A stretch of 64,000 nt of DNA from contig CAWJCS010000005.1 of assembly GCA_963841435.1 (NCBI GenBank), forward strand, positions 1 through 64,000, in the 5' to 3' direction. The stretch is from an uncultured delta proteobacterium. Lineage in GTDB: Bacteria; Myxococcota_A; Polyangia; Polyangiales; Polyangiaceae. Positions 3,585 through 32,372 of this stretch are shown piece after piece. The translations under genes were made by a program, and so were the position numbers. The notes beneath the pieces are model-generated. The model was not told the DNA's origin. It searched no databases and saw only the letters and a list, made by a program, of their open reading frames with translations. The first letter of the stretch is position 1. Every line of letters begins with the position of its first letter.

Positions 3585-5231
3585 CTATTCGGCGGCGGAA
3601 GGCGGCGCCGCCGCGCGCGCCACCTGCCACGGCGCCGGCAGCAAATCCGGCAGATCCTTGAGACGCATACGGCGGGCGAGGCGCGGCAGCACGTCGGCGA
3701 GGTACTCGACGGGGTCGATCTCGGCGAGCGCCGAGCAGCCGAGGATGGTGTAGGCGATCGCAGCTCGTTCGCCGCCGGCGTCGGAGCCGGCGAAGAGAAA
3801 GTTCTTGCGCGTGAGTGCCGCGCGGACGTGCAGGCGTTCGACGACGCCGTTGTCGATGGGGATCACACCGTCTTCGAGAAACCGACCGAGCGCGACGTGG
3901 TGGTTTTGGAGGTAGCGGATCGCCGTGCCCATCGGCGAGCTCGGTGGTTCGTGCGGTTCGTGGACGTTCGCCCAGGCGACGAGCTCGTCGAAGACCGGCT
4001 TGCTCCGTGCCTGCCGCTCGACGAGCCGGGCCTCCGGCGTCGCGTCCTTCGTCCCCGCCTCGATTTCGTAAAGCTTCTTGTACGCGGCGATCGGCAGCGC
4101 CGCGCGCTTGTCACCGCCGTCGAGCGCCTCGAAGAAGTAGCGGCGAGCGTGCATGTTGCAGCCGCACTCGATGAGCGTCTCGCGCTTGAAGCTCGCATCG
4201 AAAACGCCGGCCGCGTCGGCCACCGTGTAGCCGTTTCGGAGCTTGAGCACGTCTTCCGGCCCAAGCTCACCCTTTTTCTGCCCCGTCTTTTTGCCGGTCG
4301 AGGCGTAGAGGTAGAGCGCCGTCTCTTGGTCGCCCACGTAACCCCAGAGCGTTCCGAGCTTCTTGCCGCCAGGCGCGTCCCGATCGAGCACTGGCAGGCT
4401 CGTGCCGTCCAGGTGCATCACGACCGACATCAAGACGTTCGCGATGGCCGCGCGCCAGAGCGGTCGGAGCAAGTCCGTCGCCCACGTCACCTGGTCGGCG
4501 AGCGTCGAGACGCTGATGTCGAGCCCCATTCTCTCGAAACGCTGCCTCTGACGGTGCAGCGGCAGGCCATCCCAATACTTGTCCACCAAGAGCTGGGCGA
4601 CGAGTCTCGCGCCGAGCTTGCCGCCCGAGACGACCTTGTCGCCCGGCGGTGCTCGCACGAGCTCGCCCTCGCACCGCTTGCACGCAAGCTTCTCGCGAGC
4701 GTCGCGCCGCACCACGACCTCTGCCGGGATGAGCTCGATGACTTCCGTCACGTCGTGGCCGATGCACTCCCGCTCGGCTCCGCAGACCGGGCAGGGTCGC
4801 TCGGCGTCGGGCACGCGGAGCAGGTTCTCGATACGTCGCAGCTCCGGCGGCGGCGCCTTCCGCAGCGGCGGCTGCTTCTTGGGCTCCTTCGTTTCCTTCG
4901 TCTCCGGGTCCTCCTTTGCCCCGTCGTCGATGCCGGCAGCACTGCGGAGCCTTCGGTTCGCTTCGTCCCGCTCCTCGTCCGTCCCGCTCTCGCTCTCCGC
5001 CGCCGTAGCGAGTGCGTCGAGAAACAACAGCAGCTGCGCCTTCGGCACGCTCTCGTTCTTCTTGCGGCGCGACGCGATCTCGGCAAGCCGCTGCTCGAGC
5101 TCGCTATTGCGCGCCACGAGCTTCTCCACCACCGCGAGCACCTCGTCGTTGCGTCCCTCGGAGAGCAGCTCCTTGAGCACGTCGAGCACCGCCCCTCGTC
5201 GCTCGCTAGTGCTCTTCGACGCTCCGGCCAC
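3585..5231 (-). CDS. tnpC: IS66 transposase TnpC
   Basis: CPVCG zinc finger, LPLHRQ, HLDGT, CNMHARRYF, IDNGVVER, RKNFLFAGS motifs. Confidence 0.95.
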   Translation of the reverse strand: MAGASKSTSERRGAVLDVLKELLSEGRNDEVLAVVEKLVARNSELEQRLAEIASRRKKNESVPKAQLLLFLDALATAAESESGTDEERDEANRRLRSAAGIDDGAKEDPETKETKEPKKQPPLRKAPPPELRRIENLLRVPDAERPCPVCGAERECIGHDVTEVIELIPAEVVVRRDAREKLACKRCEGELVRAPPGDKVVSGGKLGARLVAQLLVDKYWDGLPLHRQRQRFERMGLDISVSTLADQVTWATDLLRPLWRAAIANVLMSVVMHLDGTSLPVLDRDAPGGKKLGTLWGYVGDQETALYLYASTGKKTGQKKGELGPEDVLKLRNGYTVADAAGVFDASFKRETLIECGCNMHARRYFFEALDGGDKRAALPIAAYKKLYEIEAGTKDATPEARLVERQARSKPVFDELVAWANVHEPHEPPSSPMGTAIRYLQNHHVALGRFLEDGVIPIDNGVVERLHVRAALTRKNFLFAGSDAGGERAAIAYTILGCSALAEIDPVEYLADVLPRLARRMRLKDLPDLLPAPWQVARAAAPPSAAE

Positions 5232-5303
5232 CCACGCTTTCTATTTCATCGCGATCGCCAGTGCCAAGCACAATCGCAGGGTGTCACGTGGGATCACGTA
5301 GCG

Positions 5304-5684
5304 TCACCCGGACGCAGATGCCCGAGCGTGCAGCGGCGGCTCCCAGCGCTTCTGCGCGTGCACCACCCGGGCGTCGATGCCCTCGAGCAGCATCGAGAGC
5401 TCGTGCACGTCGAGCTCCACGCTCTTCGCCTCGCTCGTCATCCTCTTCGCAAACGTGAAACGCCCCTGCTCGAGCCGCTTGTGCACAATCGTGAAGCCGC
5501 CGCGAGTCCACAACAAAAGCTTCACCATCGTGCGCCGTCGGTTCAGAAACACGAAGACGTGCCCGCTCAGCGGGTCGCGCCGCAGCACCTCGCGCACCTC
5601 GTTCGACAAGCCGTCGAATGACTTCCTCAAGTTCACCGGCTCCGTCCCCACGTATACGCGCACCGCGCGCGGCAGAAGCAACAC
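5304..5684 (-). CDS. tnpB: IS66 accessory protein TnpB
   Basis: PVNLRKSFDGL...VFVFLNRRR..VKLLLW...KRLEQGRF. Confidence 0.95.
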   Translation of the reverse strand: MLLLPRAVRVYVGTEPVNLRKSFDGLSNEVREVLRRDPLSGHVFVFLNRRRTMVKLLLWTRGGFTIVHKRLEQGRFTFAKRMTSEAKSVELDVHELSMLLEGIDARVVHAQKRWEPPLHARASASG

Positions 5685-7137: not shown

Positions 7138-8340
7138 GTGCGACCCGCGCTCAGGCCACTCGGCTCGGTTGCGGGGAGGTTTGCGCTCGGGGTCGCCCTG
7201 CTGGCCGCAGCGGGCGGCGTGCTCGGGACTTCCGGCGTCGCTTCCGCCGAGCACGGTACCCCGAGCAAAATGGTCTTCGTGCTTCACGATCAGTCTCCGG
7301 CGTCCGGAGTCCTGCAGACCTTCGATCGCTTGCAGGGCCAGCTCGGCGAGCTCGAGATCGACATCGAGACCGTCCACGTGCCACGCCTCGAAGAATTTCC
7401 CGAGCAGGCCAGGCAAGCAGCGCACATCGCGCGGGGCAGTCGAGCGGTGGCCGCGGTCTGGTTCGAAGCAAGGACCGCCGGCACCCTTCGCATTTACGCG
7501 TTGCACGCGCCGAGTGGCCGTGTGTTCGCTCGCGACGTCAGCCTGGGCGACGACGCCACCGTGCAACGCGAGCAGGTCGCCGTCGTTCTACGCGCAGCGA
7601 TACCGGCGATATTGAGCGGCGGCTCCGAACTCGGAAAGCCCCTGCTCGTCGTCCCGCGCGACCTGCCCGTCGAGGCTCCCTCACCACCGCCGCTCTCCGC
7701 CCCGAAACCTGACGACCGCGCCTCTCGCGAGGTCGAACGGGCAGCGCGACTCCGCGCAGCGGTGGGATACGGCGGAGCCAGCGTCGCGTCTGATGCGAAC
7801 TGGCAGAGCGGAGTGTCGGCAGAGCTCCTGCTGGACGCGCGCGGCTGGTTGAGGGGCAGCCTGGGGGCGGGCTACGCCGCACCCACGACCATCCGAGCTG
7901 ACCAGGCGGACGCGACCATCACGCGGTTTCCGTTCGTCGCTAGGGTCGGCATCACGCGGAGCCTCGGCAGTCCCGTGTTCGGTGTCGAGGGGGGCCCAGT
8001 GCTCGAGGCCTGGCACCGTCAAACCAGCGTCCACTCCGACAGGCTGCGACCGACCGCACCCAGTACGGCCTGGAGATTCGGTGGCGCTCTGGCGGCCCGC
8101 TTGGACATGAGCCTGAGCTCCCATGTCGGACTGTATTTGTTGTTGGAGGGGCAGTGGTTCCCCGGACCTCACACGCTGACCATCGAATCCGAGCAGGGCG
8201 AGCAGAAGATCACGACACGGTCACTGCGCCCACAGGTAGGTCTGGGTCTTCTGTTCGACGTATTCCCCCCACCGAGCGTCACGCCCGACGGAAAATTTCC
8301 ACCTTCGCAGGCGCGGCCGGGCACGAATGAAGAAAACTGA
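7138..8340 (+). CDS. Exported protein with Pro-rich linker and predicted C-terminal outer-membrane beta-barrel
   Basis: Signal peptide ending ASA; alternating Gly/hydrophobic strands in the C-terminal half; overlaps the sigma gene start. Confidence 0.7.
   Translation: MRPALRPLGSVAGRFALGVALLAAAGGVLGTSGVASAEHGTPSKMVFVLHDQSPASGVLQTFDRLQGQLGELEIDIETVHVPRLEEFPEQARQAAHIARGSRAVAAVWFEARTAGTLRIYALHAPSGRVFARDVSLGDDATVQREQVAVVLRAAIPAILSGGSELGKPLLVVPRDLPVEAPSPPPLSAPKPDDRASREVERAARLRAAVGYGGASVASDANWQSGVSAELLLDARGWLRGSLGAGYAAPTTIRADQADATITRFPFVARVGITRSLGSPVFGVEGGPVLEAWHRQTSVHSDRLRPTAPSTAWRFGGALAARLDMSLSSHVGLYLLLEGQWFPGPHTLTIESEQGEQKITTRSLRPQVGLGLLFDVFPPPSVTPDGKFPPSQARPGTNEEN
8291..8324 (+). promoter_or_regulatory. 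Putative ECF-type promoter motif, copy 2
   Basis: GAAAATTTCC-ACCTT-CGCAG...GCCGGGCAC immediately before the sigma factor ATG. Confidence 0.45.
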
Positions 8341-8923
8341 TGACCACTCGTCCGCACCGGATCGCGAGCCATGGGACGCCGACGCGAGATTGACTCGGGC
8401 TGCCGCCGAGGGGGACACGGCTGCAAAGCGGGAGCTCTTGCTCCGCGCCTTGCCCGTGGTCCGGCGAACAGCGCGGCAAATCCTCGGGCGATCGCAAGAG
8501 ACGGACGACGCGGTTCAAGCCACGTTGCTCGAGGTCCTGCAGAGCCTCGGACGATTCGAGGGCCGCAGCAGCCTCGACACGTGGGTCACGCGCATTGCGA
8601 TCCGCACCACGCTTCGCCTGGCGGAGAAACAGCGCGCACTCTTTCCGGTCGACGTGCTCGAGTCGGGGCCAGCAGCGCCTTCGAGTCGGGGTGCGCTCGA
8701 GGGAATCCCCCGACCGATCGCCGAATACCTGGACCACCTGCCGCCACGGCAGCGTGCCGCGGTCGTGCTTCGCCACGGCTTGGACTTTACGGTCGACGAA
8801 ATCGCCGAAGCGACCCGAACGTCACGCAACACGGTCAAGTATCGCCTCAAGGAGGCGCTCGCGACGATCCGGCGCCTCGTGCGTCGGGATCTAGCGACGA
8901 GAGGCAGGCGCCATGACGACTGA
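8327..8923 (+). CDS. ECF RNA polymerase sigma factor
   Basis: Region 2 (DDAVQATLL...FEGRSSLDTWVTRIA) and region 4 (LPPRQRAAVVLRH...EIAE...TVKYRL). Confidence 0.93.
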   Translation: MKKTDDHSSAPDREPWDADARLTRAAAEGDTAAKRELLLRALPVVRRTARQILGRSQETDDAVQATLLEVLQSLGRFEGRSSLDTWVTRIAIRTTLRLAEKQRALFPVDVLESGPAAPSSRGALEGIPRPIAEYLDHLPPRQRAAVVLRHGLDFTVDEIAEATRTSRNTVKYRLKEALATIRRLVRRDLATRGRRHDD

Positions 8924-9794
8924 CGCGGAGAAGCCGGGCACCGAACGCCGCTGGGCCGAGCTCATGGAGGTCGCCACGTGCGGTGAGCTGTCCGAGGCCG
9001 AGCGCATCGAGCTCGATCAGCTGTCTTTGGCCAGCGAGGAGCGCCGGGTAGAGCGACTCGTGCTCGCCGCCGTCGCGACGCGGCCGACCTCGGCTCCCAA
9101 CGTGACCAGGGAAGACGAGCGGCTGATTGACGCAGTGCTCGCAGAGCACGCCCAGCGTGGACGCCGTCGCAGAAGGTTCGTTTGGCTTTCGGCCGCAGCC
9201 CTCCTGGTTCCGCTTGCGGCGGCGGCCGCCTACTGGCCACGGAGCGTGGCTGGAAAAAAGGCCGGAGAGCGGGCGCTCGCCCCGGCGCGGGCGGCGCCAT
9301 CCGTCGCCACTTCCGGGCCAACGCGCGAGCGCGAGCCCATGGCGATGTCGAAGGGCGAAGACGCGAACGTTCAAAGTCCACCCAGCCCGGCAGCCCCTGC
9401 GGCGAGCCAACCTGCTCCAACCGCCGCCGAGTTGCTTGCCCGGGCTCAGCAGGCACGATCGGTTCGGGACTACGCTGGAGCGATCCATACCTATCGGCTC
9501 TTGCTGCGGCTCCATCCCAAGAGTGCGGTTGCGCCGCTGGCCCAGATATCGCTGGCGCAGCTACAGCTGGCTCAAGGCGACGCAAAGGCCGCGCTGGCCG
9601 GATTCGAGGCGTACGAGCGATCGGAGGGTGCGCTTTCGCAGGAGGCACACTACGGCAAGATCCGCGCCCTGCGCGCCTTGGGACGAACTGCGGACGAGCG
9701 GGCGGAGAGCCGGCGTTTCATCGAGCGCTACCCGAGTAGCGTGCAGGCCGCCGATCTGAGACGCCGCCTCGGGGAGAGCGATGCCGGCCGGTAG
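8913..9794 (+). CDS. Putative anti-sigma factor: single TM plus periplasmic TPR domain
   Basis: Overlaps the sigma gene end; RRRRRF then a TM helix, Pro/Ala linker, TPR helices ending FIERYPSS. Confidence 0.75.
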   Translation: MTTDAEKPGTERRWAELMEVATCGELSEAERIELDQLSLASEERRVERLVLAAVATRPTSAPNVTREDERLIDAVLAEHAQRGRRRRRFVWLSAAALLVPLAAAAAYWPRSVAGKKAGERALAPARAAPSVATSGPTREREPMAMSKGEDANVQSPPSPAAPAASQPAPTAAELLARAQQARSVRDYAGAIHTYRLLLRLHPKSAVAPLAQISLAQLQLAQGDAKAALAGFEAYERSEGALSQEAHYGKIRALRALGRTADERAESRRFIERYPSSVQAADLRRRLGESDAGR

Positions 9795-23917: not shown

Positions 23918-25276
23918 ATGTCGAACCTGCCCAAAGTCAATTGGGACATCGATCCCATCTTCTTACCCATCCCCCGCGACATGGTGATCACCATCGCGGG
24001 TGCGATCGCTGCCTACAGCCTGATCCAGGGGATGCGTCGCAAGGGCAGCGACCACTACTCCACCGCGGTGCTCTTCGGAGTGCTCACGTTCGTCGCGTAC
24101 AAGTACATGGGGCCGGCTCTCGAGCTTCGGTACTACAGTCTTCTGTTCGTCGTCGTCTTTCTCGGCGGCTACTCGCTACTGAAATGGCAAGTCGTGCGTG
24201 GCGGGGGAAACGCCGACGACGCGGGCGACTTCATCGTCTACGGCGTGCTGGGGGTGCTCATCGGGGCGCGGCTCGGACACGTTCTCTTCTATGACCTCGA
24301 TAAGGCTTTGCGTGACCCGATCTGGGTGTTCAAGATCTGGACGGGAGGCCTCGCAAGCCACGGGGCGGTGGTCGGGCTCATCACGGTGATGTGGCTGTTC
24401 TGCAAGCAGCGCGGCATCCCTTTTCTCGAGGGCGCCGACCGCTTCTCCTTCTCGGCCACGCTCGGCGCGACGCTCGTGCGCGTCGGTAACCTGATGAATT
24501 CCGAGATCGTCGGCCGAAGGACCGACCAAACCTGGGGCTTCCAGTTCCCGCGCTACGACCACGGTCTCGCCGTCATCCCGTACCGGTACCCCACGCAACT
24601 CGCCGAGATCGCGCTCGGCTGCACCGTGATGGCCGCCCTCTATTTCATCGACAAGCGACTCGGTGAGGAAAAGCGGCCGCGCGGCGCGCTGATTGCGTCT
24701 TTCTTCGCGCTCTACTTCAGCGGCCGCTTCTTCATCGAGTTCTACAAGGAGTACGAGGGACCGGTGACCGAGGGCTCGCCGCTAACGATGGGCCAGATCC
24801 TGAGCCTGCCGGGCATCGTCATCGGCTGGGCGGGACTGTTCTGGGCGCTGAAGAAGAAGGTCCCCGTGGGCTGGCCGTCGCGGGCAACGGACGAGGAAGC
24901 CGACGAGCGCGCCCCGCGCGCGAAGAGCAAGAAGAAGAAGAGGAGGAAGAAGAAGAAGTCCGGCCGGCGCGAGGAAAAGCGGGCCGCGACGAGCGACGAG
25001 CAGGAAGCGTCCGGCGAGGAGGCAACGAGCGACCGAGACGAGGCGTCCGAGGTCGACGAACGCGACGACGGGCACGACGACGACGAGGAAAGCGACGGCG
25101 ACGATCGCAAGGACGACAGCGAAGACGACGACGGCGACGACGATCGCAAGGACGACGAGGACGAGGACGAGGACGAGGATGACGACGAGGCGGAGCCCAC
25201 TTCCCGTCCGCCCCGCGATGCCGACATCGACGACGAGTTCGACGAAAAAGGCACGCTGAAGAAGCGGCGCGACTAG
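23918..25276 (+). CDS. lgt: Prolipoprotein diacylglyceryl transferase with long charged C-terminal tail
   Basis: IGARLGHVLFY, GGLASHG, RVGNLMNSEIVG, PTQLAE, RFFIEF, MGQILS. Confidence 0.93.
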   Translation: MSNLPKVNWDIDPIFLPIPRDMVITIAGAIAAYSLIQGMRRKGSDHYSTAVLFGVLTFVAYKYMGPALELRYYSLLFVVVFLGGYSLLKWQVVRGGGNADDAGDFIVYGVLGVLIGARLGHVLFYDLDKALRDPIWVFKIWTGGLASHGAVVGLITVMWLFCKQRGIPFLEGADRFSFSATLGATLVRVGNLMNSEIVGRRTDQTWGFQFPRYDHGLAVIPYRYPTQLAEIALGCTVMAALYFIDKRLGEEKRPRGALIASFFALYFSGRFFIEFYKEYEGPVTEGSPLTMGQILSLPGIVIGWAGLFWALKKKVPVGWPSRATDEEADERAPRAKSKKKKRRKKKKSGRREEKRAATSDEQEASGEEATSDRDEASEVDERDDGHDDDEESDGDDRKDDSEDDDGDDDRKDDEDEDEDEDDDEAEPTSRPPRDADIDDEFDEKGTLKKRRD

Positions 25277-25320: not shown

Positions 25321-25992
25321 TCAGTCCTTCTTGGTCTTTTTGCCGCCGCGGCGCTTCACGGCGCCACGCACCACGACGAGCCCGCCGCGCGCACCCGGGA
25401 CCCCACCGCCGACGAGCACGAGATTCTGCTCGGGAACGAGCTTCACGACCTTCTGGGTCAGGATGCTGACGGTCTCGTTGCCATAGTGGCCCGGCATCTT
25501 GTGGCCGAGCTTGACGCGACCGGGCGTCATGCGCGTGCCGATGGAGCCACCGTGACGCCGGTACTCGTGCGTGCCGTGCGTCATGCGGTTGCCCTTGAAG
25601 TTGTAGCGACGCATGACGCCGGTGAAGCCGCGCCCGCGCGTGATGCCTTGAACGTCAACGAACTGCCCTTCCTCGAAGAGCTTGTCAACCTCGACCTTCT
25701 GACCTATCTCGATGCCCGCCGCGTACTCCGCGGGGCAACGCAGCTCACGCAGCAACGCAGCCGGCGCTTGCCCGGTCTTCTTGTAGAAACCGGCGAGCGG
25801 CTTGTTGGTGCGCGCCTCGGGACGCTGACCCACGCCGATGACGAGCGCGCTGTAGCCGTCCTTTTCGAGCGTGCGCTTGGCGACGACCGTGCCTTCTGCT
25901 TCGATGACGGTACACGCGGTCACGGTGCCGTCCTCATCGAAAACCTGAGTCATTCCGAGCTTGCGCCCGATCACGCCGGGGTGCTGGTTCAT
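25321..25992 (-). CDS. rplC: 50S ribosomal protein L3
   Basis: GRKLGMTQVF, DGYSAL, VDVQGITRGRGFTG, GSIG..TPGRV, MPGHYG, GGVPG. Confidence 0.97.
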   Translation of the reverse strand: MNQHPGVIGRKLGMTQVFDEDGTVTACTVIEAEGTVVAKRTLEKDGYSALVIGVGQRPEARTNKPLAGFYKKTGQAPAALLRELRCPAEYAAGIEIGQKVEVDKLFEEGQFVDVQGITRGRGFTGVMRRYNFKGNRMTHGTHEYRRHGGSIGTRMTPGRVKLGHKMPGHYGNETVSILTQKVVKLVPEQNLVLVGGGVPGARGGLVVVRGAVKRRGGKKTKKD

Positions 25993-26194
25993 AGGAAGTG
26001 GGCGCTCTTAGCGCCAGGGGCCTCGGAGGTCAAGGCAGCCCCCCGGCGTGGGCCCCTGGAAAAATCGCCGCCCTAGCCCTTATTGGCCGGGGAGAAGCGC
26101 TCGTTGTGGGGGGGAGTCGTACCTCGGCGCGGCGCGCGGACCACCCCGAATACGGGCTACGGCCGGCGCCGCCGAAACTGAAGCAGGAAAAGTC

Positions 26195-28105
26195 ATGCTC
26201 GAGCACTCGAACGTCGCCCGGCTCAGGCCGCGCCTCACCTACCGTGAATTCGGCCTCGAAAAGCTCTACGGGCTCACCGAAGGACTCGGCCTCGCAAAGC
26301 TCTCCGCCCCCGCCCTCACGCTCTTCGACCTCCTAGTCTCGCCCTACGGCGACCTGCCGCTCGGCGGCGAGCCGCTCTGGCCGAGCGACATCACCGACGA
26401 CGGAACGCCATTCGAGCTTTCGGTCGCCTTCAGCCACGGCCGCCCGCTCCTGCGCGTCCTCTCCGAGGCCCAGCGCGCCCCCTTCGACGCCCAGTCCGGC
26501 TGGGAGGCCGCCCTCGCGCTCAACGAGCGGCTCGCTCGCCTGCCCGGCGTCAACCTCGAGCGCTTCGAGCGCGTCGCCCCGATCTTCGCGCCCCGCGCGG
26601 GAGCAACGCCGCGCTTCACCCTCTGGCACGCCGGCACGGTCGAGCCCGATGGGCGCCTGAGCTTCAAGGTCTACCTGAACCCCCGCATCGCCGGCGACGC
26701 GCACGCTCCGGAGCTCGTGCGCGCGGCGCTCGTGGCATGCGGCGCGGCCTATGCGTGGCCACGCCTCGCGGAGCGCCTCACGGCAAACACCGACGTGCTC
26801 TACTTCTCGCTCGATCTCTGCGCGAGCAAGAACGCACGCGTAAAGGTCTACATCGGGCACCGCGGCGCCACCTCGTCGAGCATCGACGCCGAGGTTCGTC
26901 ACGAGCCCGGCTACACGCCGGGGCTCGCCGAGAGCTGGGTCGAGATGCTCACGGGCTCGGAAGGACCGTTCGAAGCGCGGCCGATTCTCACGTGCCACGC
27001 GTTCCGCGGACCCGACCGCGAAGTCGAGGTCACCGTGCACGTTCCGACTCGCTCTTACGTCGACAGCGACGGCGAATCGGCGCTGAGGGCGAGCGAGCTG
27101 CTCGACGCCGTGAGCGCGAAGTCCTTCGTCGGCGGGCTCAAGGCCATGGCGCGCCGGCCCCTCGAGCTGGGGCGGAGCCTGCTCACCTACGTTTCGCTGC
27201 GCCCCGAAGCGGACGGCCCGCGCGTCACCGCGTACCTCGCCCCCGAGGCCTTCGCCATTTCGACGGCTCGGCCCACGGCTCGCCCCACGGCCCACCTCAC
27301 GGAGGCGAGCCCTCAGCCCTTCACGCTGCCGCCCCCGAGTGCGTCCTCGCTCCCGCCGCCCCGCGACACGCTGGTTCGCGCGCTGCGCCACGCGGGCAAA
27401 GCTCCCTCGTGGACGTTCGGAGAGGTCGAGTCGCTGATTTTCGATCAGCGTGACGTCTTCTCGAAGCACCCGTTTCTCAGAAGGCTCGAGGGCTCCGGTC
27501 ACCTCGCAGAGGTGAGCGCCGTCGCGCCACGGCTCACGTTCTTCGTCATGGTGTTCCAGGACATCCTCAGGCTTGCGCGCGCGCTTTCGACGGACCCGGT
27601 GCTCAAGGAGCTCGCCATCAACCACGAGGCGGAGGATCGCGGGCACGACGCGTGGTTCCTCGACGATCTCAAGATCCTCGCGTCGGAGCCCAACGTCACC
27701 TCGCTCTTTTCCGACGACCACGCGCCCACGCGCGACATCGCGTACAAGCTGGTCTCCCTCGTGCTGCGCGCCCAAAACGACGCTACGCGGCTCAGCGTGC
27801 TGCTCGCGCTCGAGGGCGCGGGCGCCGAGTTCTTCGGGCGGATCATCGGGTTCTTGGAGCGGCTCGGACGCACCGAAGGCCTCGCCTACTTCGCGCGCTC
27901 CCACCAGACGGTGGAACAGAACCACGACGTCTTCGGAGAGAGCACGCACGACAGGCTCACCTCGATGCGCATCGAGCCCGCGGCCGTGCCTGAGGTGATC
28001 GAGGCCATCGACGCGACCTTCGCCGCCATGAGTCACCTCGCCAACGTCGCCGAGGAAGCGAGCGCCGCCGCTCTCCACACCCCCGCGAATCGCCTCTCGG
28101 CCTGA
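26195..28105 (+). CDS. DMATS-type aromatic prenyltransferase fused to a heme-oxygenase-like diiron (AetD/BesC-like) domain
   Basis: N-terminal DDGTPFELS, FKVYLNP, YFSLDL, RVKVY, TAYL; Pro-rich linker; C-terminal HxxEDxxH (HEAEDRGH), LALEG, HxxxExxH (HQTVEQNH). Confidence 0.82.
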   Translation: MLEHSNVARLRPRLTYREFGLEKLYGLTEGLGLAKLSAPALTLFDLLVSPYGDLPLGGEPLWPSDITDDGTPFELSVAFSHGRPLLRVLSEAQRAPFDAQSGWEAALALNERLARLPGVNLERFERVAPIFAPRAGATPRFTLWHAGTVEPDGRLSFKVYLNPRIAGDAHAPELVRAALVACGAAYAWPRLAERLTANTDVLYFSLDLCASKNARVKVYIGHRGATSSSIDAEVRHEPGYTPGLAESWVEMLTGSEGPFEARPILTCHAFRGPDREVEVTVHVPTRSYVDSDGESALRASELLDAVSAKSFVGGLKAMARRPLELGRSLLTYVSLRPEADGPRVTAYLAPEAFAISTARPTARPTAHLTEASPQPFTLPPPSASSLPPPRDTLVRALRHAGKAPSWTFGEVESLIFDQRDVFSKHPFLRRLEGSGHLAEVSAVAPRLTFFVMVFQDILRLARALSTDPVLKELAINHEAEDRGHDAWFLDDLKILASEPNVTSLFSDDHAPTRDIAYKLVSLVLRAQNDATRLSVLLALEGAGAEFFGRIIGFLERLGRTEGLAYFARSHQTVEQNHDVFGESTHDRLTSMRIEPAAVPEVIEAIDATFAAMSHLANVAEEASAAALHTPANRLSA

Positions 28106-28119
28106 GGCACGGGCACACG

Positions 28120-29550
28120 ATGACCCCTCCCGACGAAGCTTTCGTCCCCGGACCCGACACCTCGGATGAAGCGCGCGCCGTCGCGAGCCGTGATTTCGGC
28201 GGGCTGTCCCAAGGTCGGACGCGCGAAGTCCTCAAGCCGGGCACGGTCGAGGAGCTCGCACGGGTGGTACGTGCCGCGGCAGGCGATGGCAAGAAGCTCA
28301 CGCCGCGCGGCCGCGGTCTGAGTCAGAGCGGCCAGTCGATCCCGAGGGACGGCTCGAGCCTCGACCTCGGCGATCTGACCGAGCTTGGCACCGTCAACAC
28401 CACGCATCGGCGCGTGTGGGTCGGGCCGGGAGTGACGTTCCGAGGTCTGCTCGCTCACGTGAGCGCGCACGGTCTACGGCCGCCCGTCATGCCGCTGAAC
28501 CTGGACCTCAGCGTGGGCGGCGTGCTCTCCGCCGGCGGCTTCGGGAGCACGAGCTTCTCGCAGGGCGTCGTGGCGTCCCACGTCGCGGCGCTCGACGTCG
28601 TGACGGGGACCGGCGACCTCGTGAGAACGAGCCGCACGGAGCGCCGAGAGGTCTTCGACGCCGTGCTCGGTGGGCTCGGACGTTCGGGCGTCATGGCCCG
28701 CGCAGAGCTCGAGCTGGTGCCGGCGCCTGGAAGAACCCGGATGTACTACCTTTTTTACCAGGAGCTCCCCGTCTTGCTCCGCGACATGGCCGTGCTCGCT
28801 CTGCGCCCGGGGGTGGACCATCTCGAGGGCTTCTGCTCGGCGAGCATCCAGGGCCTCGCGCTCGGACCCAGCGGGCGCCGGGAGCCGCTCGTGCACTGGG
28901 TCTACGGCCTGCACGTGGGCAGCGAGTTCGAGCCGCGCGCGGACCCGCCGGCGGCGAGCCGCCTGCTCGAAGGGCTGAGCTCGCCCCGCCTGCTGAAGGC
29001 CGACGACGACGACACCCGCGCCTTCGCCGCGCGCTACGACCTGCGCTTCGAGATGATGCGGCAGAGCGGCGCTTGGGGCCAGGCGCACCCCTGGCTCGAG
29101 TGTCTCTTGCCGTTCGAGGGAGCGGCGGACGTGATCGCGCAGGCGCTCGCGCTCCTGCCGCCCTTTCTCGGTGATGGTCACCGCTTGTTCCTCGTCGCCG
29201 CGGACGAGCGACCCTATGCGGTGGCCTTCCCGAACGCCGAAAAGGTGCTCGGCTTCGCCGTGCTGCCAGCGGGCGTGCCGGAGCCGCTCTTGCCGGCGGC
29301 GCTCGCCGCGCTTCGGCGCGTCGAGGACCTTTTGCTGCGCGCGGGCGGCAAACGCTACCTTTCCGGCTATCTCGGCGAGATGACGGAAGACCGATGGCGG
29401 GCGCACTACGGCAAGCGCTACGACGAGCTGGTGCGCCGTCAGTCCGCGCTCGACCCGGCGGGTGTGTTCGAATCGTGCCTCGGGGCGCTCGGCACGCCGC
29501 CGGCAAGCGCCGCGCGGGCGCTGCCCGACGCCGTCGCGAAAGCGCGTTGA
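28120..29550 (+). CDS. FAD-binding oxidoreductase, VAO/PCMH family, cytokinin-dehydrogenase-like
   Basis: PRGRGLSQSGQ, LSVGGVLSAGGFG, VVTGTG, LGGLG, HPWL, YL...W..HYG, DPAG. Confidence 0.85.
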   Translation: MTPPDEAFVPGPDTSDEARAVASRDFGGLSQGRTREVLKPGTVEELARVVRAAAGDGKKLTPRGRGLSQSGQSIPRDGSSLDLGDLTELGTVNTTHRRVWVGPGVTFRGLLAHVSAHGLRPPVMPLNLDLSVGGVLSAGGFGSTSFSQGVVASHVAALDVVTGTGDLVRTSRTERREVFDAVLGGLGRSGVMARAELELVPAPGRTRMYYLFYQELPVLLRDMAVLALRPGVDHLEGFCSASIQGLALGPSGRREPLVHWVYGLHVGSEFEPRADPPAASRLLEGLSSPRLLKADDDDTRAFAARYDLRFEMMRQSGAWGQAHPWLECLLPFEGAADVIAQALALLPPFLGDGHRLFLVAADERPYAVAFPNAEKVLGFAVLPAGVPEPLLPAALAALRRVEDLLLRAGGKRYLSGYLGEMTEDRWRAHYGKRYDELVRRQSALDPAGVFESCLGALGTPPASAARALPDAVAKAR

Positions 29551-29567
29551 GCCGGCCAGGGGCCCGC

Positions 29568-30726
29568 TCAGAGCTCGCCACGCAGGGCCTGCTCGACGAG
29601 CTCCGCCGTCGCACGACCGGACGTCACCGCATCGTCGAGCCCGTACCCCCACCCCGGCGGCGGGGCGAGGTAGTCGCCCGCGAGGAAGAGGCGCCGCGTG
29701 GCGCGTGACGACGCGTCCCGCTTGAGCCTCTGGTAGTCGGCGCCGAGCACGGTGCCCGACAGGGCCCAGCGCTTCACGTGGGAGGTCGCCATCGTGACGT
29801 CGAGGCCCGAGACGCCGAGACGCGCGACGCCCCGCCGCGCGCTTTCGACGAGGGCCCGATCGTCGAGAGCGTCAGCGTGACGGACGCATGCATCCTCGGC
29901 AAAGTAGACGTAAAACACGTGGCGTCGCCGATCGACGCTCGCCTGGTGCATCACGAGCGACAGCTCGAGATCGGGCGTGACGACGAAGCGGAAATCCGGC
30001 TCGAGCGTCGCGCCCTCGAGCTCGAACGCCACCACGGTGTAGCGCGCGTAGCGCACCGATTCGAGGAAAGCACCGACGGCCGGCGCCGGGTGCTCGACGA
30101 GCGCGCGCGCCGCCGTTGCCGGCGTTGCAACGATGACCACCCGCGCCGCGAGCTCGGCCTGGGCGCCGCTGGTCGCTCGAACGAAGATCTTCACGTCGTT
30201 CTCGCTCTCGACGAGGCGCACGACGGAGGTGCCGAGCGCGAGCTCGGCGGAGACCGCCCCCTCGAGCCGCTCGACGAGCCCCACGTTCCCACCCTCGTAG
30301 TGGTCCGGGTACCAGTTGACGACGGCGTCGTTCTGCCGGGTCGGTGCGTACTCCTCTGGGCTGCCCGGGTGGATCTCGATGGAACAGCTCGGGCAGCGTG
30401 CGCGACGCCTCGTCGTCCGTCAGCTGCGCGAGGAGCTCGCGGGCCGTGGGAGCGACGACGAGCTTTTCGCCGACGAGCGCAGCGACGGGAAAGCGCTCCT
30501 TTATCAAGGCTCCGGGAGGGGGGGCGCCCGGCGGGGCGAGGCTCGGACGGTAAGCAAAACAGGCCCCCAAATCGATGCTCGCGCCGGCGCGAGCCAGCGT
30601 GGCGACGCGCCCCCCGACGCGAGCCTCGCTCTCGACGATGAGGACATGGCGTCCGGCGAGCCCGGAAGCCGCCGACAGGCCCGCGACGCCCGCGCCGATC
30701 ACCACCACGTCGTGAGCCTCGGTCAC
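29568..30726 (-). CDS. Flavin-dependent amine-oxidase/protoporphyrinogen-oxidase-like oxidoreductase; frameshift near 30377
   Basis: VVVIGAGVAGL, VGGRV, LFLAGDY, AVTSG; the halves join by removing one base (LFH-QIHPGS). Confidence 0.75.
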
Positions 30727-30755
30727 CGGGCGCCGCATACCACGACCTCGACCCC

Positions 30756-30785
30756 GCACCGTACCGTACCGTACCGTACCGCACC
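30756..30785. repeat. Pentanucleotide microsatellite GCACC(GTACC)4GCACC
   Basis: Read directly; intergenic between divergent genes. Confidence 0.9.
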
Positions 30786-30958
30786 CTCTCCTACCCCGGC
30801 GCCCCTTGTGCGACAGACACCCCTCCCCTTGCCCCTCCGCGCCTCTGGGGCCCGGTGACCGCGAAACCGTGCCCCGCAAACGATTCCCTGCGCCGGACGA
30901 GCGCCATATGCGACGCTTGCTCTAAAGCGTGGCCCGACGGCGGCCGTAGCTCGTAACG

Positions 30959-31561
30959 ATGTTGCTCGCCTCGACGCCCCAGCCTGGAAAGCGAATCGTA
31001 GGGCGCGCCCCTGTCACGGTGCACGCCCGCGACGACGCCCACTGCGTGGGAACCTGGAAGAACGTCGCCATCTCGGTGTGGCGCACCCAGACCCGACCGG
31101 CGGCCGTGGCGAGGATGTCCCAGATCCTAGGAGAGCTCGTGAGTCGGCACCACGACGTGGCGCTCATCCAGGTCGTCGAAGGCGGAGCGACCGCGCCCGA
31201 CGCCGACGCGCGGCGCGCGATTTCGACGATGCTGCGGCTCTATTCGGACTCCATCCGGTGCTCGGCCGTCGTGTTCGAGAGCGATGGATTTCGGGCGGCG
31301 ACGCTGCGGGCCGTGGTGACGGGAATCGCCCTCTTGAGTCGCCCGCCGTACCCTCACGTCGTGTTCGCGTCGACGATCGCCGCCATCAACTGGACCGCGC
31401 GCCACTTCGCCGCGGATGGTCCGGACTTCGCCGAGGAGGCTCGCGATGCCGTCTCCGAGCTCCGGAGGGCGCTCGACCGACCGCCCTCGTTCCGACCAGG
31501 CCCCGGGCTCGTGACCGCGAAGCCAAGTGCCGCACCGGGTACCGGCGGTCTAGGTCGTTGA
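30959..31561 (+). CDS. Hypothetical protein, STAS/SpoIIAA-like
   Basis: PDADARRAI...SAVVFESDGFRAATLRAVVTGI...PHVVF pattern common in Polyangiales. Confidence 0.65.
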   Translation: MLLASTPQPGKRIVGRAPVTVHARDDAHCVGTWKNVAISVWRTQTRPAAVARMSQILGELVSRHHDVALIQVVEGGATAPDADARRAISTMLRLYSDSIRCSAVVFESDGFRAATLRAVVTGIALLSRPPYPHVVFASTIAAINWTARHFAADGPDFAEEARDAVSELRRALDRPPSFRPGPGLVTAKPSAAPGTGGLGR

Positions 31562-31663
31562 TGTTGCCTAGTTCTTTCACAAGCTAGACGCTCCCGTCAC
31601 CGAGCGAGTCTAACTACTCTCTACCGTGAGCAACGGGCCGGTCCCGTCGCGAGCGGAGGCAGT

Positions 31664-32372
31664 ATGCATATCTCGGTCATCTCCGACCTTCACTTAGGGT
31701 CGGGCGGAGCGGCAGACGGGTTCGGACACGACGACGCCGAGTTTCTCTCCTTTTTGGACTTCCTGGAGGGAAACTTCGAAAAGATTCGTGCTCCTCGGTG
31801 ACATTTGGGAAACGCTGACGGGCAAGCTCCCGGGGGACACCGTGGGCGAGCTCAGGGCGGCCCAGCGCACCCACGCAGAAATCGCGGAGCGCTTCGGGCG
31901 CTCAAAATACCTGCAGGTCTCGGGCAATCACGACCTGGTCACCCAGGAGGTGGACGGCGTGCCCGAGGAGGTCGTCGTCGTGGCCGACGGCGTGCGCATG
32001 CTGTTCACCCACGGGCACCAGAGCGACGCGCTCGTGACCGACGGCATGGGAGCGGCGGAGTACGGGGTCTGGCTCGGCGGCTGGGCACGACGGCTCCACC
32101 TCGATCCCATCTACCAATTCGGCAACTGGCTCGACAACGTTCGCGGCGGCATCTCGGTGCACAGCGAGCGCTGTGCGTTCCAGCGGGCGTGGATGGGTCG
32201 AGCCGAGCGGCGCGAGATGGACGTGATGATCACGGGCCACACGCACCTCGCGACCCGCGCCGAGCACGGCGCCCGGCTCTACCTCAACAGCGGCTCGTGC
32301 AGCGAAGGCAAGTTCAGCTACCTCGCGATCGACACGCGGCTCGGCAGCTACACGGTGCACACGGGCTACTGA
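31664..32372 (+). CDS. Calcineurin-like metallophosphoesterase; frameshift near 31786
   Basis: GGAGG RBS; ISDLHLG, LLGDIWE, GNHD, HGH, GHTH, NSG motifs across two frames. Confidence 0.85.

Follow-up and report, generated by a model that had tools for sequence, protein, structure and literature searches.

What does a cytokinin dehydrogenase (CKX)-like flavoprotein do when its gene lies directly behind one that encodes a prenyltransferase fused to a diiron oxidase? The question is raised by the first 64,000 nucleotides of contig CAWJCS010000005.1 (assembly GCA_963841435.1, an uncultured delta proteobacterium of the Polyangiaceae), a stretch of about 69% G+C referred to here as the window. The flavoprotein is best explained as a two-domain flavin dehydrogenase of the CKX fold that serves an AetD/SktA-type diiron oxidase as its dedicated partner. 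The coupling of its gene to the upstream gene is real, the constant partner being the diiron domain and not the prenyl group. The original prediction had proposed that the enzyme desaturates or oxidises a prenyl group on the way to indiacen-like compounds; its coupling to the fusion gene stood, while its focus on the prenyl group was not supported, given that flavoproteins of this clade follow the diiron oxidase where no prenyltransferase is present. The features concerned are:

26195..28105, plus strand: fusion gene, 636 amino acids (aa), with a dimethylallyltryptophan synthase-type prenyltransferase (DMATS) domain at about 26195-27289, a Pro/Ser/Ala-rich linker and a haem-oxygenase-like diiron oxidase (HDO) domain at 27407-28102

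28106..28119, plus strand: 14-nt spacer from the fusion gene to the flavoprotein gene, read directly from the sequence, with a GAGG overlapping the stop codon

28120..29550, plus strand: CKX-fold flavoprotein of the vanillyl-alcohol oxidase/p-cresol methylhydroxylase (VAO/PCMH) superfamily, clade A (NoCKX1 type), 476 aa, ATG start

The two genes are co-directional and, as predicted, the second starts 14 nt past the first, whose TGA stop occupies 28103-28105. The open frame of the flavoprotein begins at 27994, with no ATG, GTG or TTG in frame earlier than 28120. A site scan found neither a promoter-like nor a terminator-like site in the spacer, and over 25900-31800 it returned no promoter-like site and four terminator-like sites against 2.5 expected.

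The likeness to CKX that had been proposed is confirmed by Pfam, by solved structures and by a structural model in agreement, and from the E-values it is far beyond chance. Residues 37-171 match the PCMH-type FAD_binding_4 domain (PF01565, 5e-26), and the C-terminal part alone gives a weak match to Cytokin-bind (PF09265, 5e-7, 29.9 bits, cut-off 23). The closest solved structures by sequence are plant CKXs, matched over the full length (6c80, E 4e-34, residues 16-450), then DprE1; the AlphaFold2 model (pLDDT 90.7, pTM 0.88, 28 relatives as input) also places CKX first (8clw, E 1.4e-39, TM 0.79) and DprE1 next (TM about 0.7). No NCBIfam model was passed, and a six-frame Cytokin-bind search of the organism's own genome gave no match, not even to this gene, being too insensitive for so weak a domain. 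Judged by these matches, the protein is a PCMH-type FAD-binding-domain member of the VAO/PCMH superfamily. The plant enzymes ZmCKX1, ZmCKO4, AtCKX7 and LuCKX1.1 share its two-domain fold over the full length (TM about 0.8) at 24-28% identity, with the FAD-binding domain and the HPW motif kept here. Unlike them, it lacks the His of GHS and has Leu for Asp169, HYG for HFG and Glu for Asn after HPWL, and its gene context also differs.

These replacements can be placed with some precision. The original reading of GLS for the FAD-attachment GHS was upheld, the CKX motif RGNGHS aligning to R63-G64-R65-G66-L67-S68, with L67 at the position of the flavin-linking His (H105 of ZmCKX1). The catalytic Asp169 (the Asp of the WTDY motif), whose site was fixed through 3s1f, an Asp169Glu mutant chain that differs from 3s1d at exactly that residue, aligns to L126. 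The HFG motif is HYG (H429-Y430-G431), and the C-terminal PHPWLN keeps its HPW but reads HPWLE. Around Glu288 the alignment is gapped and offers no safe residue assignment. The two-domain CKX architecture (FAD_binding_4 plus Cytokin-bind) is present; the GHS His, Asp169 and the HFG and PHPWLN motifs are not. In CKX the Asp169-Glu288 pair polarises the substrate amine (PMC9340367), and on this alignment the flavoprotein has lost both the amine-polarising Asp and the covalent flavin link.

Much the same deviations are described for NoCKX1 of Nostoc sp. PCC 7120, with which the flavoprotein is compared by the paper's description: Tyr (GYT, Y68) for the flavin-linking His, L127 for the Asp and a Tyr in HFG (PMC4574047), against L67, L126 and Y430 here in near-identical numbering, the His site alone being Tyr there and Leu here. 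According to the same account, recombinant NoCKX1 contained no FAD on purification and was inactive on every substrate tried, CKX activity being absent from all forms of the protein, and the R. fascians CKX, which keeps His and Asp, was the only functional bacterial CKX known to the authors (PMC4574047). The flavoprotein carries the traits of this NoCKX1 type (clade A), namely a lost His, Asp169 replaced by Leu, a PLNLDL motif and an HDO as neighbour or fusion partner, the tie to NoCKX1 itself again resting on that paper's description. Since Asp169 has become Leu and HFG has become HYG, as in the inactive NoCKX1, the flavoprotein is, to judge by its residues, not a cytokinin dehydrogenase.

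The upstream gene probably starts at ATG 26195 rather than GTG 26048. The N-terminal two thirds of its product match Pfam Trp_DMAT (1.3e-12, 48.2 bits, cut-off 25) and nine solved bacterial DMATS (E 6e-37 for 6zry to 7e-24), with the conserved Glu of the TP-x-E motif aligned; the match to NCBIfam TIGR03429 lies below its cut-off (93 vs 164). The second domain, of which the original prediction had made no use, is a diiron oxidase of the AetD/SktA type by its match to AetD and its aligned ligands. Its roughly 200 residues match AetD at E 4e-6 in context and 1.8e-5 alone, and Pfam Haem_oxygenas_2 at 8.8e-6, below the cut-off (26.1 vs 28.9). The AetD ligands D76, H79, E140, H172, E176 and H179 and Tyr167 are all seven aligned, within the motifs EDRGH, LEGAG and YFARSHQTVEQNH. 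This diiron domain looks competent, because the D, H, E, H, E, H set and the Tyr are invariant in 18 related HDO domains.

AetD turns a dibromo-tryptophan into the indole-3-carbonitrile and gives the carbaldehyde as a shunt product, Y167 holding the substrate carboxylate and the ligand set being 3-His/3-carboxylate (bioRxiv 10.1101/2023.08.03.551874); its homologue SktA yields 3-methylindole (skatole), cyanide and bicarbonate (PMC11869266). As in this locus, the AetD and SktA clusters combine a ring-modifying enzyme acting on tryptophan (a halogenase there, a DMATS here) with a following diiron HDO that has the same six ligands and Tyr. Unlike here, no CKX-fold flavoprotein is described in the published accounts of those clusters, and the present HDO, joined to a DMATS, shares only about 25% identity with AetD. 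SktC of the skt cluster was considered as the same flavoprotein and rejected, its gene opening with the kind of Rossmann nucleotide-binding motif that is usual in flavin monooxygenases.

To which of the two domains the flavoprotein is tied can be read from a tree of its relatives. From all loci 83 distinct CKX-like sequences were gathered, and the 78 with at least 380 residues were placed in the tree (IQ-TREE quick, LG+G4, midpoint root, SH-aLRT support), five short rows being left out. The rows are kin, some flanks are just 1.5 kb, and the counts are descriptive, without statistics. The named-genome scan favoured clade A, as its two search patterns derive from clade A motifs (a five-sequence alignment), and the clade B loci were picked from the genus. 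Clade A (support 100, 30 rows) holds the flavoprotein. His is found at GHS in only 2 of its 30 rows, so the His loss holds across the clade, and the Asp169 site is Leu in 28, Phe in two and Asp in none. Within 4 kb, DMATS and HDO are both present in 16 rows, HDO only in 10, neither in four and DMATS only in none; an AetD-family HDO thus lies nearby in 26 of the 30. Clade B (support 98, 21 rows) has His in 20 rows and Gly (16), Asp (4) or Ala (1) at the Asp169 site. Its neighbours within 4 kb are DMATS only in nine rows, both partners in eight, neither in four and HDO only in none, which places a DMATS nearby in 17 of 21. Four HDO queries against seven clade B loci, with flanks of about 8 kb (less at contig ends), returned nothing below 1e-6. 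The remaining 27 rows (Streptomyces, Vicinamibacterales, alpha-proteobacteria and others) show His in 26 and Asp in 25, with neither partner in 24. The flavoprotein has a 13-residue insert relative to clade B, and two acidic residues are specific to clade A, D129 (28/30) and E327 (25/30). In its own subclade, DMATS and HDO are both present in all 15 rows.

Close orthologues, sharing 46-60% identity with the flavoprotein at E values of 1e-100 or below, were found in four genomes among 60 relatives, and in all four a DMATS-HDO gene lies directly upstream. Together with the complete subclade and the triple fusions described below, this bears out the predicted functional tie to the fusion gene. 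The fusion protein itself is matched in 34 of the 47 genomes from the genus, a tally that takes in one unpublished genome (G033) on which no conclusion depends. The named-genome scan found 55 loci, the nearest records being from Polyangiaceae (59-60% identity) and a Sorangium sp. (47%), followed by Acaryochloris marina and Thermosynechococcaceae (44-46%), Nannocystaceae and Sandaracinaceae, with single records from Actinomycetota, KSB1 and Acidobacteriota. An HDO adjoins the flavoprotein gene in 23 of the 29 closest loci (L025-L053), 13 of which also have a DMATS; six have neither. In Acaryochloris marina the gene upstream of the flavoprotein encodes an AetD homologue (E 2.5e-49) with no DMATS, the pair lying at 4567-5589 and 5920-7293 of L028, and a sample of 301 genomes from that phylum gave three matches at E 1e-40, the two new ones without HDO or DMATS within 8 kb. 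Among the neighbours at the DMATS-free loci are a tryptophan halogenase in L050 and, in L042, a flavin monooxygenase.

Domain fusions follow the same division. In L016, DMATS, HDO and a clade A flavoprotein share one 1153-aa frame, and in L008/L105 a single 843-aa protein joins a DMATS to a clade B flavoprotein, no HDO lying within 8 kb. Searching 1.84 billion protein representatives returned 344 relatives with E values up to 1e-30; the best 150 of these were inspected for fusions and included one triple fusion (P0010, 1080 aa) and four HDO-flavoprotein fusions without DMATS (P0011, P0019, P0030 and P0065), with clade A motifs. The constant partner of clade A is taken to be the diiron domain because an HDO without DMATS occurs in 10 of its 30 rows and in these four fusions, and DMATS alone never does.

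Given this partner, the flavoprotein may oxidise the C3 unit made by the HDO from the (prenyl-)tryptophan side chain, a reading to which we give about an even chance. We infer its chemistry from what is observed, that is, the fold, the residue changes, the ligands of the partner and the associations of genes and domains. The DMATS domain, from its family, would prenylate L-tryptophan, and the fused diiron domain would then oxidatively cleave or rearrange the alanyl side chain to leave a one-carbon unit on the indole C3, as AetD (nitrile, aldehyde shunt) and SktA (3-methylindole and cyanide) suggest. The flavoprotein would take two electrons from this unit. In one version, a CKX-like C-N dehydrogenation of a rearranged C-beta/N/C-alpha intermediate would give an imine and, after hydrolysis, indole-3-carbaldehyde or aminomethyl-indole; in the other, a 3-methyl group would be oxidised in the manner of vanillyl-alcohol oxidase via a methylene-indolenine.

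Vanillyl-alcohol oxidase, p-cresol methylhydroxylase and the ergot enzyme EasE belong to the same flavoprotein superfamily as CKX and act by taking a hydride from a benzylic carbon that is in conjugation with a ring heteroatom; the prenyl diene on 4-DMAT is attributed to EasE. They can serve as models for the two candidate reactions, those at C3 and at the prenyl group, although they are more distant than CKX and DprE1 and absent among the structure matches listed for the flavoprotein. In the mechanism that its authors put forward, AetD inserts nitrogen between C-beta and C-alpha, starting with oxidation of the beta-carbon, in two oxidative rounds, the second acting on the N-inserted intermediate to give the nitrile or, via an imine, the aldehyde (bioRxiv 10.1101/2023.08.03.551874). 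A retooled CKX would be chemically natural as the second oxidant, since a heteroaryl-C-N-C skeleton is what CKX enzymes dehydrogenate, and oxidation by a flavoenzyme is possible because AetD and SktA both leave a C3 unit open to hydride abstraction. A wider proposal, which we offer tentatively as possible rather than probable, is that clade A flavoproteins are the second enzyme of a two-enzyme module for editing the tryptophan side chain, in which the AetD-type diiron oxidase would form the N-inserted intermediate and C-N dehydrogenation by the flavoprotein, a CKX retooled through loss of Asp169 and of the covalent flavin, would decide between aldehyde, aminomethyl-indole and nitrile, while clade B would be prenyl desaturases making indiacen-type dienes.

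Several points weigh against oxidation at C3. The presence of DMATS in all 15 rows of the flavoprotein's subclade gives room for a prenyl-directed role, and the loss of Asp169 speaks against classical amine oxidation, though D129 and E327 are acidic. An HDO that makes a nitrile, like AetD, would leave no obvious group at C3 for oxidation. NoCKX1, with the same three deviations, was reported to be FAD-free and inactive (PMC4574047). The tree rows are related, part of them came from a scan biased to clade A, some have only 1.5-kb flanks, and the proposed chemistry would hold by analogy with AetD, SktA and CKX.

The reading that survives best beside it is rather unlikely in our estimate, and is close to the original prediction: the flavoprotein would abstract a hydride from C1' of the indole dimethylallyl group to give a 3-methylbuta-1,3-dienyl chain, 2 Da lighter, as in the indiacens. 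The cavity over the flavin in CKX does take an isoprenoid chain and attack the carbon next to a heteroaryl-N (PMC9340367), the Asp to Leu change would be in keeping with a substrate that has no NH, Sandaracinus produces dienyl-indoles (PMC4660955, PMC9306752), and the constant DMATS of the subclade and the known triple fusions fit as well. The partner pattern of clade A as a whole argues otherwise, since 10 of 30 rows and four fusion proteins have an HDO without DMATS and none has a DMATS alone, and this tells against the prenyl desaturation originally proposed for the flavoprotein. It is clade B that pairs with DMATS alone, in nine of 21 rows including the 843-aa fusion, and prenyl desaturation therefore fits clade B better. 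Furthermore, L029, L036, L041 and L043 hold flavoproteins of both clades around one DMATS-HDO, suggesting two jobs, and two large Sandaracinaceae-family genomes have clade B and not clade A.

Two further roles for the flavoprotein are each improbable. It could act ahead of the diiron domain and supply the HDO with its substrate, for instance a (prenyl)tryptophan dehydrogenated at the beta-carbon; the AetD proposal begins with beta-carbon oxidation (bioRxiv 10.1101/2023.08.03.551874), and association with an HDO is silent on order. AetD and SktA, however, each convert the amino acid unaided in vitro (bioRxiv 10.1101/2023.08.03.551874, PMC11869266), and the order of domains in the fusions, HDO and then flavoprotein, is weak evidence in the same direction. 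There is likewise only a small chance that the flavoprotein is a non-catalytic or electron-transfer partner, either a flavin-poor scaffold or a reductase returning electrons to the diiron site. NoCKX1 was obtained FAD-free and inactive (PMC4574047), HDOs need external electrons in vitro, given as ascorbate (PMC11869266, bioRxiv 10.1101/2023.08.03.551874), and fusions imply proximity. The FAD_binding_4 match (5e-26) and the many Gly, Pro, Arg and His positions that are invariant in an alignment of 28 sequences argue against a scaffold or redox role. Proteins of the VAO family are not known to act as reductases that depend on NAD(P)H. That the flavoprotein is a genuine cytokinin dehydrogenase (EC 1.5.99.12) degrading isopentenyl-adenine is scarcely credible despite plant CKXs being its best sequence and fold matches, as His105, Asp169 and the Phe of HFG are all replaced, NoCKX1 with the same replacements has no CKX activity in the published description (PMC4574047), family scans of the window proteins found no IPT or LOG gene nearby, and canonical bacterial forms keep His and Asp and sit elsewhere on the tree.

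One such canonical form, P0128 (661 aa), has a LOG-type domain (Lysine_decarbox, 6.6e-35) fused to a full-length CKX with a full cytokinin-binding domain, the setting expected of a true bacterial CKX. Another protein, P0064, joins a CKX to an SCP2 domain.

The original prediction could also be followed into the family of the indiacen producers. Nine of 32 Sandaracinaceae-family genomes match the clade A profile at 1e-30, and the clade A trio is present in four; L040 is from an uncultured Sandaracinaceae bacterium. The two large genomes of the family, with contigs above 10 Mb, carry a clade B flavoprotein gene divergent from a DMATS gene, and genes for an AetD-like protein, a P450 and an MFS transporter stand close by. 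The suggested check of Sandaracinus genomes for the same pair is therefore borne out for the family, in which related cassettes do occur, though mostly of the other clade. Indiacens A and B come from both described Sandaracinus species (PMC9306752), and a two-step synthesis of indiacen B starts from 4-iodoindole with no C3 substituent introduced (PMC4660955). Because nothing is added at C3, the indiacens would lack a 3-formyl group, and to describe them as indole-3-carbaldehydes, as had been done, appears mistaken (PMC4660955). Candidate loci for prenyl-indoles such as indiacens are the Sandaracinaceae-family clusters L093 and L094.

These two clusters contain genes for an MFS transporter, a clade B CKX-like flavoprotein (Cytokin-bind 2.7e-23), a divergent DMATS, a 159-aa protein without family, an AetD-like HDO and a cytochrome P450. 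In L094 the DMATS frame has 655 aa, and the idea that its C-terminal extension hides an HDO was rejected (hhalign probability 0.2%). Genes of both clades surround one DMATS-HDO gene in L036, L041, L043 and L029, the order being B, DMATS, HDO, A in three of them and, in L029, DMATS-HDO-A followed by a more distant second CKX-like gene. At L050 (2613-8348, a Polyangiaceae bacterium), a clade A flavoprotein stands with a tryptophan halogenase (Pfam 4e-137), an AetD-like HDO and two proteins without family, one with a faint DMATS match (E 0.12); the locus is the cassette in halogen form and is similar to the skt cluster.

Downstream of the flavoprotein gene lies one further gene that recurs beside it:

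30959..31561, plus strand: small accessory protein, 200 aa, SpoIIAA/STAS-like fold, no Pfam or NCBIfam family

A tblastn search placed homologues of this protein immediately behind the clade A flavoprotein gene at 8 of 12 related loci; in the window, about 1.4 kb of minus-strand DNA lies between the two. Its model (pLDDT 82.9) matched 2q3l (E 5.8e-4) and anti-sigma antagonists in Foldseek. A STAS-like homologue also occurs elsewhere in the same genome (L113, 7455-7820, minus strand), after an unrelated 573-aa frame (8041-9759, minus strand) with two tandem HDO-like repeats, the second having degenerate ligands; no DMATS or CKX-like gene lies within 8 kb.

The intervening minus-strand DNA (29568-30879) carries a protoporphyrinogen/amine-oxidase-like flavoprotein gene that is apparently split over two frames, the N-terminal Rossmann part lying in the frame of 29872-30879 and the C-terminal part in that of 29568-30419. 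Seven consecutive C near 30517-30523 are a possible frameshift site or assembly error. This split gene is not conserved beside the cassette in the 12 related loci. On the other side, a gene for ribosomal protein L3 (25366-25977, minus strand) stands alone and divergent from the fusion gene, a layout shared by L026 (L3 73% identical). It was considered as a resistance duplicate (rplC) and rejected, giving no such lead because it is the only L3 match in the assembly. Beyond it, at 23918-25276 on the plus strand, is a gene for Lgt (prolipoprotein diacylglyceryl transferase) with a C-terminal tail of about 140 residues, Lys/Arg-rich and then with a long Asp/Glu-rich stretch.

In the literature searched, which leaves most subscription journals outside, neither a DMATS-HDO fusion nor a CKX-fold partner of an HDO was found described. 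A 2026 review of HDOs still treats AetD and SktA as stand-alone enzymes, and neither the fusion nor such a partner appears in its available text (PMC13108848). The pattern described here points to an undescribed route to modified indoles. A flavoprotein conserved beside diiron oxidases, and repeatedly fused to them, suggests a second pathway step that has been missed, and it puts forward a definite hypothesis for the bacterial 'CKX' genes, whose routine annotation is cytokinin degradation though the one studied, NoCKX1, had no such activity. If it is true, the 'inactive cytokinin dehydrogenases' of cyanobacteria, NoCKX1 among them, would gain a function. Simple pairs such as the two-gene Acaryochloris cassette are available for study. 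The compact DMATS-HDO-flavoprotein cassette, present in many genomes of Polyangiaceae, Sandaracinaceae and Nannocystaceae, is a candidate source of prenylated indole aldehydes, nitriles or dienes, and with its fused DMATS it would, if the hypothesis holds, represent a widespread and undescribed family of prenyl-indole pathways in the Polyangiales.

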